Below, piece by piece: positions 16,814 through 32,050 of a stretch of 64,000 nucleotides of DNA. Within the stretch, counting starts at the first letter, position 1; each line of letters begins with the position of its first letter. Location: positions 248,823 through 312,822 of the forward strand of contig JAZKBU010000007.1 of the NCBI GenBank assembly GCA_040388375.1, given 5' to 3'. A program made the translations under genes and the position numbers. The stretch is from Bacteroidota bacterium (lineage in GTDB: Bacteria > Bacteroidota > Bacteroidia > UKL13-3). Under the pieces are notes generated by a model. It did not search any database, was not told the DNA's origin, and saw nothing but the letters and a program-made list of their open reading frames with translations.

Positions 16814-16837
16814 AAGGTTGGTGAGGACACCAACCTT
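16814..16837. repeat. REP-like perfect hairpin AAGGTTGGTG-AGGA-CACCAACCTT (family copy 1)
   Basis: 10-bp perfect arms downstream of the 16882 gene. The same sequence recurs at 22216-22239 and about 25340-25366; a degenerate copy sits at about 31968-31996. Confidence 0.75.
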
Positions 16838-18825: not shown

Positions 18826-21800
18826 TTAAATAAAAAGCCTATAATCATAAGTCTTTCCTTCAAATCTAGAAAGCAATTTTCCAATTCGAGCAATTTGATT
18901 TGAAGAATCAATTGTCGATGGTAACTTAGAATATAAGTCTAATGAATTCCAATTCATTTTTGTTAGTCCTAATATCTCTGTTGCAATAGTTTGTATATTA
19001 GACTCGCCATAATGTTTGGTTATTTTGACTGGCGCAGGGATACTTCTACCGCCCAAATAAAACTTATAGTTTTGTTGTCTTACAGAAGGAACAATGCCAT
19101 GAGTCCATAATAATGCTGTATGCTTGTTTGTGACAATACACGTACCTCTCGAAATTGGAAACTTGTCAATCTGAAGTTCATTTTGATAAACACTCATAGC
19201 TAGGAAACGTGCATCTACTTCATAATTGATTTCAACTAAATCTATTTTCTTAATCCCAGCTTTATTTAGACTAGCTTTAATACCATTTATTTCATCTTCC
19301 GTAAATTTTGTTCTTTTGTGTATTACTACTCTTTCTGGAAGTTTATCAAGTGACTGATAAAACAATTCACGAATGGATACTCCAAATTGAAATGCATCTT
19401 TATAGGATAAATATGGGTTAAGTTGCTTGTCAAGAAAGTAGTTATCAATTTTTGAAAGTCTATACTTTAATCCTTGCCCGTTTGAATCGTAAATATGACT
19501 ACAGCCAATTACAATTTCAGATTTATCTTGAATTCGTGAAACACTATACCCGATTCCCGCATAAGCTGTATTTTTCTCTTGATTATTCAAAATCCAAGGT
19601 GTTCTAAGCGACTTAACATAAAAAGATAATGATAACCACCAATAGATTTGACACTTTAGGGTGTCATTAAGTGTTTCTTCCCTAATAAGTTGTGTCGAAA
19701 TACCTCGAGAAGCTGAAAATGCTTTAATATAGTCGTGTAAATCAAAACTTTCCCCTTGATTGATATAATTTTCAAATAATTGCCATTCATTAGGAATAAA
19801 AATTACGATAGTACTCTGACTTTGTGTATTCGCAATCTGTTCAATTTTGCTTGTGATTAGACGAACTAGTTTTATTGCATTTTCGTGGCTTTCCAAACCA
19901 TTTTCTGGATTGAATTCAATGCCAATCCATTTTTCGCTACTATCAAATAATGGAATATTAATTGGAATATTAAAAATGGAAGAGAAGCCAGGGTAATCAA
20001 TTAAATAATCAGGATTAATATTTTCTGTTGAGTGCTTTACTTGTAATTTTGATAGGAAATCATAAAATCTGTTCGAGTATTCTTTCCCACAAATTACTGA
20101 AAGATTTATTTCATTTGAATGAATTACTCCATTTAGATTTACATCAAATGGCCTGTTATTCACCAAACCTCTCATTGGATGATAGTCCTTAAACTCTACA
20201 TCAGTAGCCACATTTCTAAAAACTAATTGGGGCTCTAAAAATTGTACCCCTTTAAATTGAGTTTGTCTCTTATCATAATTATTTGGTGTATATGACCTAA
20301 AGTTAGGGTCAAGCACATTTATTTCTCCAAATGCTGTATTCGATGAAATTTGAAATTCAAAACCTGTTCCAGATGAAATTGGGTATTCAAATTTGATTCG
20401 TTGATTACTAAATAATGTGGCATTCCAAAAGTCTAAAACTTCATCATATTTATTGTTGTATAATTTTTCTAGTTGATTTTTACTTACTTGTTGTTTCTGT
20501 GTTTTTGTTATTTCCTCAGAAGATGAAAGATAAACGGTTGGAGTAAAGGTTAAATAAGCAAAGCCCGCGTTTTTATCAAAATAGAATGACAAGTAGATAG
20601 ATTTATGAACACCAATATTACCAAATTGCCTTTCATTTTTCTTGATCCAAATCTTATCTTTAAGATTTGTTTCAATTGTACTGTTAGAACTGAAATGTTT
20701 CAGGATTGCTTGAAGCATTAAGGATTTAAATGCGGAAACTCTCTCAATATCAAATTTTGAAATTGGCTCTCTTTTTATTTCGGATTTTAGATGCTTTTTA
20801 AAGGCATTGCTAATTTCAGAAAGAGTACCTAAAGCAAATACCTTTTTCTTGAAAGGTACAGCACAAATATTTGTATCTTTCGTAACTGCTTTTAAAAACG
20901 CCCAAGGCTTTTCTTCTTTATAATCAATTTCAAATTGGAATATCTCTTTAGGAAATACAATTGGATGAAGATTACTTTTGATGTATTTGTCTGTTCTTGA
21001 AAAACTCAAACTAAATTCAGTTTTGAAATATTCTTCATCATCAGAAACTTCCAAGGCTTCTTGAATTTTTTTAGAAATGGTTTGATTGTCTTCAAATGCT
21101 GATTTTGATAAATGAATCAACGTTTTATCAAATCCATCTGTTGCTACGTAATAAGCCTCTCTTCCCGACTGTCTAATTTGCAAAATAAGTTCGAGCACTT
21201 CTTTATTTATTTGGTCTCCATAGCCACACCAATATAATCTTCCTGCACCATTTTTGCTAAATGCAATTTTAATTGCTTGCATTAATGAATTATCTCTCCC
21301 ACTATAACCAATTACAATTAGATTTTTATCAATATGATAATTTGCTAAATGCTCTTTGAACGTTTCATTTTGATTATCTAATTCTTTTTCCGTGTTTTTT
21401 AATGTGGAAAATTTATAGTCACCGTGTAGTGCAATTGATAATAGTTCTTTACTACTTTGATTGCGGTAAATTTTATCAGTATTGTCAAGCGTAATCTCTA
21501 TTGGTGTTAATTTATTTTGATGTGCTGAACGTACCGTTAAGCCATCGAAGTTCGTAGTCCAAACTGATTTGACTATTCCATATTCCGCTAAAAGACAGAG
21601 TAATTTATAGCCAATATAAGGCTCTTTATTCTCTATTAGACTTAAAAAATATTTTCGTCTATCTTCAGCAATAGGATAAGCCTTTTCTGCATAAAAAGAA
21701 TATTCTTCGGGTGAGTCTAGTAATGGATACTCGCCTTGATTATCTAACCAAGTCTGTATACTTTTTCTAACAGCTTCTTCTTTATAGTTTTTATAAAAGT

Positions 21801-21984
21801 CAGCTGAATTAATATTTTTAGATAGATATATATCTTTTTTCCATTCCCAAATACAATCATAGGCTGTTTGTATCCCAGAACTTATTGAAGTTCCTGCTCC
21901 CAATAAGAAGGAATGAGGGACGTCTATATTCCTTTTAAAAGATCTTAAAAAAGCATCGTATTCAAGATGTATATTTTCTACCAT
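18826..21984 (-). CDS. Single-chain SIR2-APAZ-short prokaryotic Argonaute fusion (short-pAgo immune effector; catalytically inactive PIWI)
   Basis: N-terminal SIR2-type NADase motifs (FLLGAGTSISSGI; TTNFDGL; LHGDYK). Middle APAZ-sized region (~300 aa). MID-like 5'-end-binding Y..K...Q...K pattern (HDYIKAFSASRGISTQLI...YVKSL). PIWI first strand GIGYSV, with the catalytic Asp replaced by Gly. Ago-type C-terminal segment (GGRSIPAPVKITKHY). Confidence 0.8.
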   Translation of the reverse strand: MVENIHLEYDAFLRSFKRNIDVPHSFLLGAGTSISSGIQTAYDCIWEWKKDIYLSKNINSADFYKNYKEEAVRKSIQTWLDNQGEYPLLDSPEEYSFYAEKAYPIAEDRRKYFLSLIENKEPYIGYKLLCLLAEYGIVKSVWTTNFDGLTVRSAHQNKLTPIEITLDNTDKIYRNQSSKELLSIALHGDYKFSTLKNTEKELDNQNETFKEHLANYHIDKNLIVIGYSGRDNSLMQAIKIAFSKNGAGRLYWCGYGDQINKEVLELILQIRQSGREAYYVATDGFDKTLIHLSKSAFEDNQTISKKIQEALEVSDDEEYFKTEFSLSFSRTDKYIKSNLHPIVFPKEIFQFEIDYKEEKPWAFLKAVTKDTNICAVPFKKKVFALGTLSEISNAFKKHLKSEIKREPISKFDIERVSAFKSLMLQAILKHFSSNSTIETNLKDKIWIKKNERQFGNIGVHKSIYLSFYFDKNAGFAYLTFTPTVYLSSSEEITKTQKQQVSKNQLEKLYNNKYDEVLDFWNATLFSNQRIKFEYPISSGTGFEFQISSNTAFGEINVLDPNFRSYTPNNYDKRQTQFKGVQFLEPQLVFRNVATDVEFKDYHPMRGLVNNRPFDVNLNGVIHSNEINLSVICGKEYSNRFYDFLSKLQVKHSTENINPDYLIDYPGFSSIFNIPINIPLFDSSEKWIGIEFNPENGLESHENAIKLVRLITSKIEQIANTQSQSTIVIFIPNEWQLFENYINQGESFDLHDYIKAFSASRGISTQLIREETLNDTLKCQIYWWLSLSFYVKSLRTPWILNNQEKNTAYAGIGYSVSRIQDKSEIVIGCSHIYDSNGQGLKYRLSKIDNYFLDKQLNPYLSYKDAFQFGVSIRELFYQSLDKLPERVVIHKRTKFTEDEINGIKASLNKAGIKKIDLVEINYEVDARFLAMSVYQNELQIDKFPISRGTCIVTNKHTALLWTHGIVPSVRQQNYKFYLGGRSIPAPVKITKHYGESNIQTIATEILGLTKMNWNSLDLYSKLPSTIDSSNQIARIGKLLSRFEGKTYDYRLFI

Positions 21985-22215: not shown

Positions 22216-22271
22216 AAGGTTGGTGAGGACACCAACCTTGGACAAACTTGTTGGTGAAGAACACCAACAAG
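22216..22271. repeat. Tandem pair of REP-like hairpins (AAGGTTGGTG-AGGA-CACCAACCTT, then CTTGTTGGTG-AAGAA-CACCAACAAG) upstream of the pAgo gene
   Basis: Two adjacent perfect 10-bp-arm palindromes. The second is a sequence variant of the first. Confidence 0.75.
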
Positions 22272-22303: not shown

Positions 22304-22317
22304 AGTGTTTGTGCAAT

Positions 22318-22353
22318 AAAAAATCCCTTCTATTTTGTAGAAGGGATTTTTTG
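22318..22353 (-). terminator. Bidirectional intrinsic terminator downstream of the 22361..23254 gene
   Basis: aatcccttcta-ttttg-tagaagggatt 11-bp stem with T-tracts on both sides. Confidence 0.7.
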
Positions 22354-22360
22354 TTTGTGG

Positions 22361-23254
22361 TTAGGCTTTGATAAGGCTTACCTGGAGCTGGGTTATTTTA
22401 CCCTGCTCAACAGTGGCTTGAACGCTTTGGGTTATATAGCCGCCTGCTTCTATACGCAGGGTGTACTGGCCTGCGCGCATTTTGGTTATTTCGCATATAC
22501 CTTGCTGGTCGGCTTCATCGGTTTTGGTGCTACCCTCTAAAATGGCTTTGGCAATGGTAAGTGGGTTATTGCTTGCTGCATCTGTTACTTTTATGCTTAC
22601 GCCTGTTTTGCGCACGGCTGCTTCGTTTATGACTTTGGTGGCTATAAGGATGCCGGCAAAAGCGGGGACATTCATTGCATTGACTACTAAATCGGTAATG
22701 ATGGCCAAGCTGGCATCGGCTGCTTTGAAGAGGCTATTGGTTTCGGCTACCATGTTTTTTTTGTTTTTTACAGCGCTTTGTGTAGTACCTAAACTGGTTT
22801 GGAATGCATTTACTAACTGGCGTGCGGCTGTTACATCGGTAGGCTTGATGTTGAGGTCAACCAAATTGCGTGCATTGGTTTCGATGGGTGTTAATACTGC
22901 ATTGGCTTTGGCATAACAGTCGGCATCGGGTAAGCGGGTAAAATCGGTTTTGGTTACATTGAAAAGGGTCATGAGTGGTATGTCTTTTTCATCCTTTGCC
23001 CATACGTAAGCGGCTCTTGCTAGTTTACAAAGGGTTTCGGTCATGGTTAATTTTAGCTGGGTATTGTTATTGGTAATACCTTTTGTGCTTACGCTGAGGC
23101 TGGAATTCAGCTCATCTATGCGTGCTAAGATTTGGTTGAAATGCTGCACCTCGGTGTCTAACCTTGCTAATAAGTTAACGGAGGCTGTGTTGGTTTTTAA
23201 AACTTGCTGTACGGCCTGGTACATGTTAAGTTTTGCAATTGAATTCTTATTCAT
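22361..23254 (-). CDS. Hypothetical protein with a C-terminal carboxypeptidase-regulatory-like beta-sandwich segment
   Basis: C-terminal RAGQYTLRIEAGGYITQSVQATVEQGKIT resembles a CarbopepD_reg-like domain. The rest is helical and uncharacterised. A 780-bp repeat-rich region lies upstream. Confidence 0.45.
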   Translation of the reverse strand: MNKNSIAKLNMYQAVQQVLKTNTASVNLLARLDTEVQHFNQILARIDELNSSLSVSTKGITNNNTQLKLTMTETLCKLARAAYVWAKDEKDIPLMTLFNVTKTDFTRLPDADCYAKANAVLTPIETNARNLVDLNIKPTDVTAARQLVNAFQTSLGTTQSAVKNKKNMVAETNSLFKAADASLAIITDLVVNAMNVPAFAGILIATKVINEAAVRKTGVSIKVTDAASNNPLTIAKAILEGSTKTDEADQQGICEITKMRAGQYTLRIEAGGYITQSVQATVEQGKITQLQVSLIKA

Positions 23255-23424
23255 ACGATTTTTAATTTATTGGTTGTTATAACGTTTTTGATAGCTGTTT
23301 TATTATTTTAAGCTGCTATAAAATGTTTGTTATATGGCTTGTTCAGGGGTATGAATTTGATATGTGGTTTTATTTTATTTTGATTGGCATTGGAAGGAGT
23401 TTGTTTGGGATGTAGAAGCTTATG

Positions 23425-23795
23425 TTTATGCTTTGATGGCATTTGTTTGATTCCCGATATGGTTTGTTTGACTGTTGGTATTGTTTGTTTACTCTTTGAT
23501 TGCCTTTGTTTAAGGTTTGACTGCATTTGTGTCACTTTTGATAGCGTATGGGTTAACTCTTGATTTTGTTTGTTTGACCTTTGATGGCGTATGTTTAACC
23601 TTTGGTTGACTTTGCATCAGGTGCGGCTGAATTTGTGTCACTTTCAATGGCTTATGTTTGACTTTAAAAGTGATTTGTTTGACTCTTGATGGCTTATGTT
23701 TAACCTTTGATGGCATTTGTTTAAGGCTCGACTGAATTTGTGTCATATTGAGCGGCTTATGTTTGACCCTTGATGTGATTTGTTTGGGATTGGGT
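23425..23795. repeat. Degenerate 21-bp tandem repeat array (about 17 units) with a 105-bp (5-unit) higher-order periodicity
   Basis: Units such as ctttgatggcatttgtttaag, ctttgatggcgtatgtttaac and tcttgatggcttatgtttaac. Every fifth unit is the variant ...gactg(c/a)atttgtgtca(c/t). The units are contiguous with no spacers. Confidence 0.8.
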
Positions 23796-23810
23796 GGGGT
23801 TTGCACCGCA

Positions 23811-23880
23811 TTTCATACGGTGTATCTACCGTATTTTATACGGTGTATCTACCGTATTTCATACGGTGTTATTGAAATTA
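23811..23880. promoter_or_regulatory. Two and a half tandem copies of a 23-bp unit carrying the palindrome TACGGT-N6-ACCGTA (operator-like)
   Basis: tttcatacggtgtatctaccgta / ttttatacggtgtatctaccgta / tttcatacggtgtt. 6-bp inverted arms separated by 6 bp, which fits a dimeric HTH binding site. Confidence 0.5.
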
Positions 23881-24032
23881 AATCACTTCGTGATTTTTAT
23901 ATGGGGGTGACTATATATGGAATGGAAATACATAATTATGCCTGGCCCCGTTCTTCTTCTATATCCTCATTGGGCCATTTTACTCGTTTTTCTTCCATGG
24001 TATAATATACTATTTGGTAAGATTGTTCTTAC

Positions 24033-24623
24033 TTATACTTTAATTCTCTTATCACGTGCTTGCATTCCATTTAACGTGCTGTGTATTTTCCTTTGTTTGT
24101 TAATAATATCAACAAGCTCTGCAATATTGCACGCAAGAGCAGTTGAGGAGATACTTAATGGCGTTCCATAAACACGGTAATTCATGTTCATCCAAAATTT
24201 CTTAAACAGGTTTGCATTGTTGATGTATTGGTGTGGATTATTCACATAGATTAATACAAACTTTGTTCGCTTAACGGCTTCTATACGGAGGTGTGTTATG
24301 TCGTCCCATTTTATGGTTTGCCCGCCAATTGCGCTGGAGTTATCGGTTATGCCCATGTGGTTTATTATTATTCCCGGTTTGGTGTCGAATAGTTTTCCAA
24401 AACCTATTATTCCGAACAGTCCGAAAAGAAGGAAATCCATGAGGGCTACTATCCTTACCACAGTTGAATCGTAACGTGCCTGCCTCTCGGCTATGTACCA
24501 CAGCCAAAGTCCGGCAGCTACAAACAATAAAGCCCCGATGGTGAGCAAAACAATTTTAAGCTTGTTTAGCGGTATTTCAATAGAGTCGTTTTTGTTTTGT
24601 ATTAACATAGTACTTTTATCCAT
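24033..24623 (-). CDS. Membrane-anchored protein (two TM helices plus a cytoplasmic PH-like domain?)
   Basis: Hydrophobic N-terminal helices (LLTIGALLFVAAGLWLWYI; FLLFGLFGIIGFG). Promoter copy A lies upstream. Confidence 0.45.
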   Translation of the reverse strand: MDKSTMLIQNKNDSIEIPLNKLKIVLLTIGALLFVAAGLWLWYIAERQARYDSTVVRIVALMDFLLFGLFGIIGFGKLFDTKPGIIINHMGITDNSSAIGGQTIKWDDITHLRIEAVKRTKFVLIYVNNPHQYINNANLFKKFWMNMNYRVYGTPLSISSTALACNIAELVDIINKQRKIHSTLNGMQARDKRIKV

Positions 24624-25467: not shown

Positions 25468-26403
25468 TTACTCTATTATTGTTATCCCTGTTAAATTTGC
25501 CTGGTTGTTTTTTAAAAAGGCATAGGTAATTTTATCTACTTTACAGTCAATAAACTGTACGCGTTTAAATTTTCCATTATACTTAAAAAAGGTATTTAAA
25601 ATGGTTGCATTCTGAAATGTAACATTATAAAATGTACAGTTTTCAAATTGGCAGTTCTCTAAAGTGCCTTCAAAAACAATATCGCTAATACCTGCATTTT
25701 TAAATGATGTAAATTTCCACACGGCATTTTTCACCACATTACTTTCAAAATTTACTCCGGTAAACTCAGCCCCCGAAAAATTCGTTTCAGAAAAATCGCA
25801 TTTGCCAATATTGCTTTTTAAAAATGTAGCATCTATCAATAAACAATTATTAAACTGGTTATTTAACAAATTAGATGATTGAATTTTGCTGTTTCTAATG
25901 TCTGAAGAGGAGAAATCGCACATTTCAATATTATTGCTTCCAAGAATAAGCCCCGACAAATCAGCGTTTGCAAACTTGCAGTTCTTCATATTGGAAGAGC
26001 TGAATTTTTCCTTTAAGTTCTTTAAGCCTGAAAAGTCAGCGTCAACCCAATTCCCTTTGGACATATCCCAACTCCAATCAAATTTGTTCTTTGCTTTAGC
26101 CTCCGGAATTTCTACTGTTTGGTTGTCAAACTGCTCGTTGGTTGTTGTTGAAATTTCATCAGCCTTAAAACTGTCAGAGAAATAGTTAAGATCAACTCCA
26201 AAAATTTCAGCCAGTCGGTTTAATGTGGTAATGTCGGGCATGGATTCACCACGTTCCCATTTTCCAACTGCTTGTGAACTGATTGATACTTGCTGGGCAA
26301 GTTCTGCTTGTGAAAGATTCGTTTTCTTTCTTGCTGTGGCAATTTTATTGCCAATTGTTTTTGAATTTAGCATCTTATGTTTTTTAAAATTTTGATGCTG
26401 CAA
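25468..26403 (-). CDS. XRE-family HTH domain fused to a pentapeptide-repeat domain
   Basis: HTH segment (NLSQAELAQQVSISSQAVGKWERGESMPDITTLNRLAEIF) followed by many A(D/N)(L/F)xx pentapeptide repeats (ADFSG, ADLSG, CDFSS, ATFLK, CDFSE, AEFTG...). Confidence 0.75.
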   Translation of the reverse strand: MQHQNFKKHKMLNSKTIGNKIATARKKTNLSQAELAQQVSISSQAVGKWERGESMPDITTLNRLAEIFGVDLNYFSDSFKADEISTTTNEQFDNQTVEIPEAKAKNKFDWSWDMSKGNWVDADFSGLKNLKEKFSSSNMKNCKFANADLSGLILGSNNIEMCDFSSSDIRNSKIQSSNLLNNQFNNCLLIDATFLKSNIGKCDFSETNFSGAEFTGVNFESNVVKNAVWKFTSFKNAGISDIVFEGTLENCQFENCTFYNVTFQNATILNTFFKYNGKFKRVQFIDCKVDKITYAFLKNNQANLTGITIIE

Positions 26404-31955: not shown

Positions 31956-32050
31956 TCATGCTTACTCACCTAAGGTTGGTGAGGACATCAGCCTTGGGCA
32001 AACATTCAGGAACATACCCTGCGTTTGTTACTATCGACCAAACTTCAGTT

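Follow-up and report, generated by a model that had tools for sequence, protein, structure and literature searches.

A 21-bp tandem array with a 105-bp higher-order period is conserved upstream of a gene family in freshwater Bacteroidota

The array and its gene in the window

We analysed a 64,000-nt stretch of a Bacteroidota genome (contig JAZKBU010000007.1, positions 248,823 to 312,822; hereafter the window), in which a tandem array of 21-bp units lies directly upstream of a gene for a 297-aa protein. This gene (22361..23254) and the 196-aa gene preceding it (24033..24623) are both encoded on the minus strand, referred to below as the sense strand, and enclose an intergenic gap of 778 bp (23255-24032), in agreement with the ~780 bp given in a first-pass annotation made from the sequence alone. 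Tandem Repeats Finder (TRF), base identity per lag and reading of the individual units place the array at 23368..23803 (minus strand), as ~20 head-to-tail units of 21 bp. The first-pass annotation had recognized the array but counted only ~17 units; the figure rises to ~20 once the final two or three units at the gene-side end, which are degenerate and reach ~23368, are included. The distal edge corresponds to the point (~23803) where homology to the related locus L001 begins.

Base identity, calculated for each lag over 23380-23800, averaged 0.314 across all lags and reached 0.573 at lag 21 and 0.551 at lag 105; in 500 shuffles it exceeded 0.433 at no lag. TRF likewise detected the 21-bp period in two segments (23483-23608 and 23640-23722) and the 105-bp period in one (23569-23786; 2.1 copies, 79% matches, score 275), and a repeat search returned four 105-nt copies starting at 23463, 23569, 23674 and 23695. 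Both of the periods proposed initially are therefore real. The units follow the plus-strand consensus cTTTGATGGCWTATGTTTGAC, which on the sense strand reads as a core, AAACAWA, followed by 14 less conserved bases. The superperiod comes from a distinct fifth unit, as the first-pass annotation had proposed: ATTTGTGTCA returns at spacings of 106 and 105 bp (on the sense strand, the variant GACACAAAT is every fifth unit), yielding five-unit copies at 23463-23567, 23569-23673 and 23674-23778. The unit pattern matched 11 times in the 64 kb (chance expectation 0.92), with nine matches within the array and the remaining two being weak, with three mismatches each.

A single unit of 22 bp, with an extra base in TATGGGTTAAC (23547..23557, plus strand), interrupts this regularity; on the minus strand it reads AACCCAT, compared to AAACAT in L001, placing the extra base at ~23551-23553. 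Because of this one base, identity at lag 211 exceeds that at lag 210, and the same 1-bp insertion switches both the repeat register and the open reading frame (ORF) that runs over the array on the sense strand. The two frames described earlier are thus genuine, but they result from a single extra base. An independent Logan assembly is 100% identical to the window over 2509 bp, extra base included, which contradicts the notion that the frameshift is a sequencing error within a Lys-rich protein read in a single frame.

The 297-aa protein consists of a long helical bundle (residues 1-213), which belongs to no Pfam family, and a transthyretin-like CarboxypepD_reg beta-sandwich (residues 218-294), with no evident signal peptide and neither a DNA-binding fold nor a nuclease (endoribonuclease toxin) fold. 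A hairpin followed by a T-run (AAATCCCTTC..GAAGGGATTTTTTATT; 22315..22350, minus strand), read from the sequence, is a putative intrinsic terminator for the gene. The family is very small: clustering at 90% identity gives 38 clusters out of 5.8 billion proteins, every one from freshwater Bacteroidota metagenome-assembled genomes. Searches of plasmid, phage and viral collections gave no match to it and were likewise empty for two of its distant relatives. A profile of the N-terminal helical domain retrieves a far broader set of 2,188 clusters (526 at E <= 1e-10), whose proteins are 214-410 aa long and lack a Pfam family or an informative name.

Adjoining the distal end of the array are three 23-bp units, each with the palindrome ACCGTAT-N3-ATACGGT (23805..23869). 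These units, which are not part of the conserved module, occur nowhere else in the window and have no homology to L001, where other palindromes occupy the same relative position, and in L003 and L005 the position is taken by AGACGTTGC-AC-GCAACGTCT.

Conservation of the array among relatives

To describe the distribution of the array, we denote the window locus W and the loci of relatives L001-L025; W, L001, L003 and L005 form the window's clade. Of the loci with at least 51% protein identity and sufficient upstream DNA, 15 of 15 (W, L001, L003, L005, L006, L008, L010, L012-L015, L017 and L021-L023) have a 21-bp array immediately preceding the gene, in the same orientation. In these, identity at lag 21 is 0.51-0.63, compared to a background of 0.25-0.31, and the arrays comprise 12-25 direct repeats. 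Lag 105 is the top or a near-top lag in W, L001, L003, L005 (0.78), L006, L010 (0.79) and L017 (0.85), and in the RuvB-DinB-RecG clade (hereafter the RecG clade) it ranks second, after lag 168. The unit sequences themselves have diverged beyond recognition between clades (for example, AAGTGCTGCAAACCGTTTAGC, AAACAATGAGGTTTTAAGGTA and GGATGCAACATTATGTCAGGT), with short cores, AAACA, CATAA, TGCATA and ACAATG, common to several of them. What similarity remains is in the same orientation only, and the possibility that the array is inverted in the window's clade relative to the others was rejected, there being no reverse-orientation similarity.

Homology between W and L001, whose proteins are 90% identical, spans only 23803..22318, that is, the array, the gene and the terminator, ending at ~22318; both flanks are unrelated. 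The three elements are one conserved module with flanks that are unrelated between genomes, and its architecture is kept while most of its sequence is not. The phasing by two helical turns, pointed out in the first-pass annotation, is retained in very divergent relatives, which fits the protein-binding or nucleoprotein role suggested there. No comparable array was found elsewhere in the 229 kb examined.

Beyond this set, no array is present in a clade at 46% identity (L019 and L020), whose intergenic DNA measures only 237 bp. The single distant family member whose gene context was examined, P0043 at L025 (32% identity), has its own 21-bp array (GCGTTCTGGCATCTGGAGGTC x 10.8, 88% matches; L025 3681-3907), ending 94 bp before the ATG. 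P0043 is a protein of 410 aa with two extra C-terminal domains. Its array is GC-rich, is directly followed by a canonical -7 box, TATGTTTG, and is open in all three sense frames, with a 151-aa ORF called across it.

The array is non-coding. In W the open sense frame reads as K-Q/H-x-P-x-K-V heptads, its openness being due to the T-poor composition of the sense strand (A 46%, C 25%, G 11%, T 17%). In the homologous arrays no frame is kept open with a start and a stop: besides the frameshift in W, an in-frame TAA interrupts the frame in L001 (KHKP*KV), the frame lacks a start codon in L003 and L005, and there are 3-24 stops in each sense frame of L006, L008, L012, L013, L015 and L017. Translated, the array would give a basic peptide in W and an acidic one in L010. 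Automated gene calling still places ORFs on the arrays (L001, 161 aa; L010, 87 aa; L024, 78 aa; and the one of 151 aa in L025), and such spurious 'proteins' are a practical annotation problem. A CRISPR array is ruled out, as noted from the start, by the direct contiguity of the repeats, which have no spacers between them. Intrinsic curvature was also rejected as a common property, since it is not conserved across loci: under two wedge models with approximate parameters, W falls at shuffle fractions of 0.15-0.25, L017 is straighter than random, and both models predict curvature for L008 and L010 alone.

Several other repeats occur around the module. Repeat-rich intergenic DNA lies upstream of the arrays in L008 (2800-3500), L010 (230-690), L013 (5070-5500) and L022 (3400-4520), consisting of unrelated short tandem 7-, 14- and 16-mers (TATTGCC, GGTTAATTGTTTAACT) and a 441-bp duplication, such that the genomes of these relatives tolerate unusually repeat-rich spacers. 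In the RecG clade, the array units often read as three-codon mini-ORFs (ATG-NNN-NNN-stop, e.g. ATGAGGTTTTAA; L008 3604-3860, also L013, L015, L021 and L022); these are absent from other clades and are probably incidental. A hairpin resembling repetitive extragenic palindromes (REP), GGTTGGTGAGGACACCAACC, is present in the window at 16816-16835, 22218-22237 and 31974-31993, as well as in intergenic DNA of L001, L003, L005 and L015; in L001 its copies flank the module on both sides.

Promoter motifs and the possible role of the array

Ten of the array loci, from about five clades (L006, L008, L010, L012-L015 and L021-L023), have the motif TTGGCAC/T-N5-TTGA/C at -43 to -47 from the ATG. Situated between the array and the gene, it conforms to the sigma-54-type -24/-12 pattern (consensus in PMC12316311), with an exact TGGCAC-N5-TTGC in L010, and in most clades lies 50-190 bp from the array. 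Sigma-54 promoters are functional in Flavobacterium, where they strictly depend on enhancer-binding activators (PMC9723704). In four independent clades the unit core CG(G)TT is located 12, 10, 8 and 10 bp (mod 21) from the -24 element, a spacing suggestive of helical phasing, at roughly p = 0.05 for a motif chosen post hoc.

Position, orientation, two-turn period and promoter linkage are thus conserved while the sequence and the flanks change, which argues for a phased cis-acting protein-binding array. We tentatively propose that the array is a non-coding, helically phased, enhancer- or operator-like protein-binding region for the 297-aa gene. It would represent a row of asymmetric binding sites exactly two helical turns apart, and the bound factors would thereby share the same side of the double helix; a 10-turn (105-bp) module, which is itself repeated, would be composed of five distinct types of site. 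Where the sigma-54 promoter is present, the array would most plausibly be an oversized enhancer, or upstream activating sequence (UAS), serving as the assembly platform of an oligomerising activator. The window's clade would have lost this promoter, and its unit cores would also form -33/-7-like sigma-A boxes on the other strand, so that regulation there may follow a different logic from that of the sigma-54 clades. We infer from the conserved arrangement that a protein binds the array, that the binder would be such an activator and that its binding would affect transcription of the gene.

As in the UASs of the bacterial enhancer-binding proteins (bEBPs) NtrC, NifA and XylR, the sites would act in cis on a -24/-12 promoter located tens to hundreds of bp downstream of them and be phased on one face of the helix. 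Several observations weigh against the proposal. Known UASs consist of two to five sites, usually dyad-symmetric, compared to the 12-25 asymmetric direct repeats with a five-unit order found here. The sigma-54 motif is missing from W, L001, L003, L005 and L017 (the top match in the window, 7/10, is inside the array), and the 64-kb window encodes no protein with the bEBP (GAFTGA, Walker-A) or RpoN signatures, and no bEBP is linked to the array. Support from distant relatives comes from one locus, L025. Moreover, the array diverges at about the rate of four-fold degenerate sites among close relatives and faster at larger distances; strong sequence-specific constraint is therefore limited to the short cores. 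Finally, both candidate binders named in the first-pass annotation have lost ground: the adjacent helix-turn-helix (HTH)-pentapeptide protein is a neighbour in no other locus, and the 297-aa protein itself is unlikely to be a generic array binder, because its N-terminal domain, with a pI of 9.2 in the window, has a pI of ~5 in distant relatives.

A second reading concerns the window's clade only, in which the A/T-rich stretch from the array to the start codon (23255..23367, minus strand) includes a conserved block, CAAACATTTT..GC..TTAAAA..TAAAA, and no recognisable sigma-54 or sigma-A promoter; no Bacteroidetes -7 box was found on the sense strand from 24100 to 23200. The plus strand, in contrast to this lack of a sense promoter for the gene, bears candidate sigma-A boxes that match the Bacteroidetes consensus (-33 TTTG, -7 TAnnTTTG) at the canonical spacing, which equals the 21-bp period. 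Two such TTTG-N17-TATGTTTG motifs, at 23632..23660 and, 105 bp further, at 23737..23765 (both plus strand), are consensus matches only, directed away from the gene, and the former is built from the 'fifth' unit and the one coming after it. In Flavobacterium, the -7 box spans -12 to -5 (PMC9723704). The array might accordingly be a ladder of divergent promoters, the T(A/T)TGTTTG cores serving as successive -33/-7 boxes that recruit RNA polymerase and give rise to short transcripts running towards the hairpins at 23805-23869; such transcription might yield a non-coding RNA upstream of the gene, act as a sink for polymerase or control the gene by way of supercoiling. The antisense strands of W, L001, L003 and L005 each bear exactly two strict TTTG-N17-TAnnTTTG motifs, with the boxes kept despite a different inter-box spacer in W and L003. 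Two of the 16 strict matches in the 64 kb, both strands included, fall within the array, and relaxed matches in W number five against a shuffle mean of 0.26. Because the motif is missing from all other array-bearing clades, such a ladder cannot account for the conserved architecture; in addition, the boxes may simply reflect conservation of the AAACATA and ACACAAAT cores, and the plus-strand RNA folds no more stably than expected (z = -0.45). We regard the ladder as unlikely, whether in place of the protein-binding array or alongside it.

Slightly less likely still is a neutral minisatellite, or variable-number tandem repeat, that hitch-hikes beside the gene and whose period is maintained by unequal crossing-over. 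Indeed, array lengths differ in whole-unit steps of 21, 42 and 105 bp within the pairs W/L001 and L003/L005, the copy-number change among close relatives by which such loci are defined, and this reading would also agree with the divergence close to that of four-fold degenerate sites and with the richness of the host genomes in other short tandem repeats. Neutrality sits poorly with the persistence of position, orientation and period down to 51% (in one case 32%) protein identity with both flanks replaced, with the recurrence of the five-unit superperiod in several clades, and with the absence of a comparable array from the rest of the examined DNA.

An element acting as RNA, either a long A/C-rich leader or a repeat RNA controlling the protein in the manner of ToxI, would suit a setting among defence genes and a window clade in which no sense promoter was found between the array and the gene. 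ToxI, of type III toxin-antitoxin systems, also consists of tandem repeats immediately upstream of one gene in a defence-rich neighbourhood; its units, unlike those seen here, are 34-45 nt long and fold, and are accompanied by an upstream promoter and by a terminator before the toxin gene. In most clades the sigma-54-like promoter lies between the array and the gene, an E. coli-type scan for promoters and terminators, of little informative value here, gave no terminator there, and the protein lacks the endoribonuclease fold of the toxins. A structured or known RNA was rejected: folding is unremarkable in W (z = -0.9 sense, -0.45 antisense) and L017 (z = +1.06), the sole stable case being L006 (z = -3.7), and Rfam 15 yielded no match in the window at the gathering score, the only sub-threshold match by E-value, Gut-1 (20 bits versus a threshold of 50), mapping to the neighbouring hairpins at 23805-23869. 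An RNA-level role is accordingly improbable.

The iteron- or centromere-like interpretation offered in the first-pass annotation, under which the array would serve replication or segregation of a mobile island, fared worse and is now very improbable. The 21-bp direct repeats fall within the ~17-22 bp of iteron origins and, like the cooperatively bound iterons of R6K (22-bp x 7), P1 and F (19-22 bp), they are about two turns long with a conserved core and a variable remainder; the unrelated flanks of the module might also suggest mobility. Unlike iterons, the array has far more copies and is tied, always on the promoter side, to one chromosomal gene, with no replicon and no initiator, none of the neighbours having a Rep domain. 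Type Ib and II centromeres (R1 parC, 2 x 5 x 11-bp; pSK41 parC, 20-bp repeats) similarly place phased repeats upstream of an adjacent gene, overlapping its control region, but they reside on plasmids with a ParR-like ribbon-helix-helix adaptor and a ParM or ParA motor, whereas no partition adaptor or NTPase gene was found in the window neighbourhood or at any related locus. Integrase and relaxase genes are likewise not linked to the array, the contig is a chromosomal one of 495 kb, and the protein family, as mentioned above, is unmatched among plasmids, phages and viruses.

That the array encodes a Lys/Gln-rich heptad-repeat protein, with the frame break being an error or a programmed shift, is scarcely credible: one sense frame is mostly open in W, L001, L003 and L005 and gene callers do emit ORFs, but the frameshift recurs in the second assembly and the stops, missing starts and change from basic to acidic peptides described above are those of non-coding DNA.

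Defence-gene neighbourhood and significance

The module usually borders anti-phage defence genes. In the window, the gene immediately downstream of the 297-aa gene encodes a 1052-aa SIR2-APAZ-pAgo fusion (18826-21984, minus strand; PADLOC pAgo model, E = 0), an arrangement that constitutes a short prokaryotic Argonaute defence system. At other loci, the neighbours are AbiJ/Abi_C and a type ISP restriction-modification (RM) enzyme (L006), SIR2_2 (L010), an HsdR-like helicase (L023) and Eco57I with ParE (L020), and the downstream neighbours are an ORC/Cdc6-like ATPase, HsdM and RhuM (L008), a STAND NTPase and MmeI (L013), HsdM (L015 and L021), and Dcm, HpaII and AAA_21 (L022). Overall, the defence types found at the module cover RM types I, IIL and ISP, Abi, SIR2, STAND, AAA_21 and ParE; L025 is not in a defence context. 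Loci of the RecG clade keep a constant left flank and module and exchange their downstream cargo, as a defence-island hotspot does. Upstream of the array in the window are genes for an STM3941-family membrane protein and an XRE-HTH/pentapeptide-repeat protein (24033-24623 and 25468-26403, both minus strand), the XRE-HTH part of the latter giving weak RmrA-like matches in PADLOC; neither adjoins the array in other genomes.

A more ambitious possibility, which we consider doubtful, is that the array and the helical-bundle/transthyretin-like protein form a new two-part system widespread in Bacteroidota (2,188 protein clusters), the long, phased DNA scaffold being an obligatory partner of the gene and not an ordinary promoter-proximal operator. 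If so, the scaffold might, for instance, be a nucleoprotein switch or sensor located at the edges of defence islands and controlling or seeding these.

Our literature search on tandem and higher-order repeats retrieved no bacterial 21-bp/105-bp array and no description of the 297-aa gene family. Parallels among higher-order and 21-bp repeats are eukaryotic: satellite higher-order repeats, in which differentiated monomers build a fixed multimer and this multimer in turn is repeated and homogenised, and the 21-bp promoter repeats of SV40 and HTLV-1, in which units of the same length are transcription-factor sites. Higher-order tandem repeats are regarded as a feature of eukaryotic satellites, and here a 5 x 21-bp order persists beside a bacterial gene family, down to at least 51% (in one case 32%) protein identity, as its sequence turns over, by which selection on architecture can be separated from selection on sequence. 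The array also makes phased nucleoprotein arrays tractable for study in bacteria and, in a phylum with little knowledge of this kind of regulation, may represent a sigma-54 enhancer of unusual size. In addition, it provides a first handle on the uncharacterised protein superfamily of 2,188 clusters, and the module to which it belongs recurs as an anchor point for the anti-phage defence islands of freshwater Bacteroidota.
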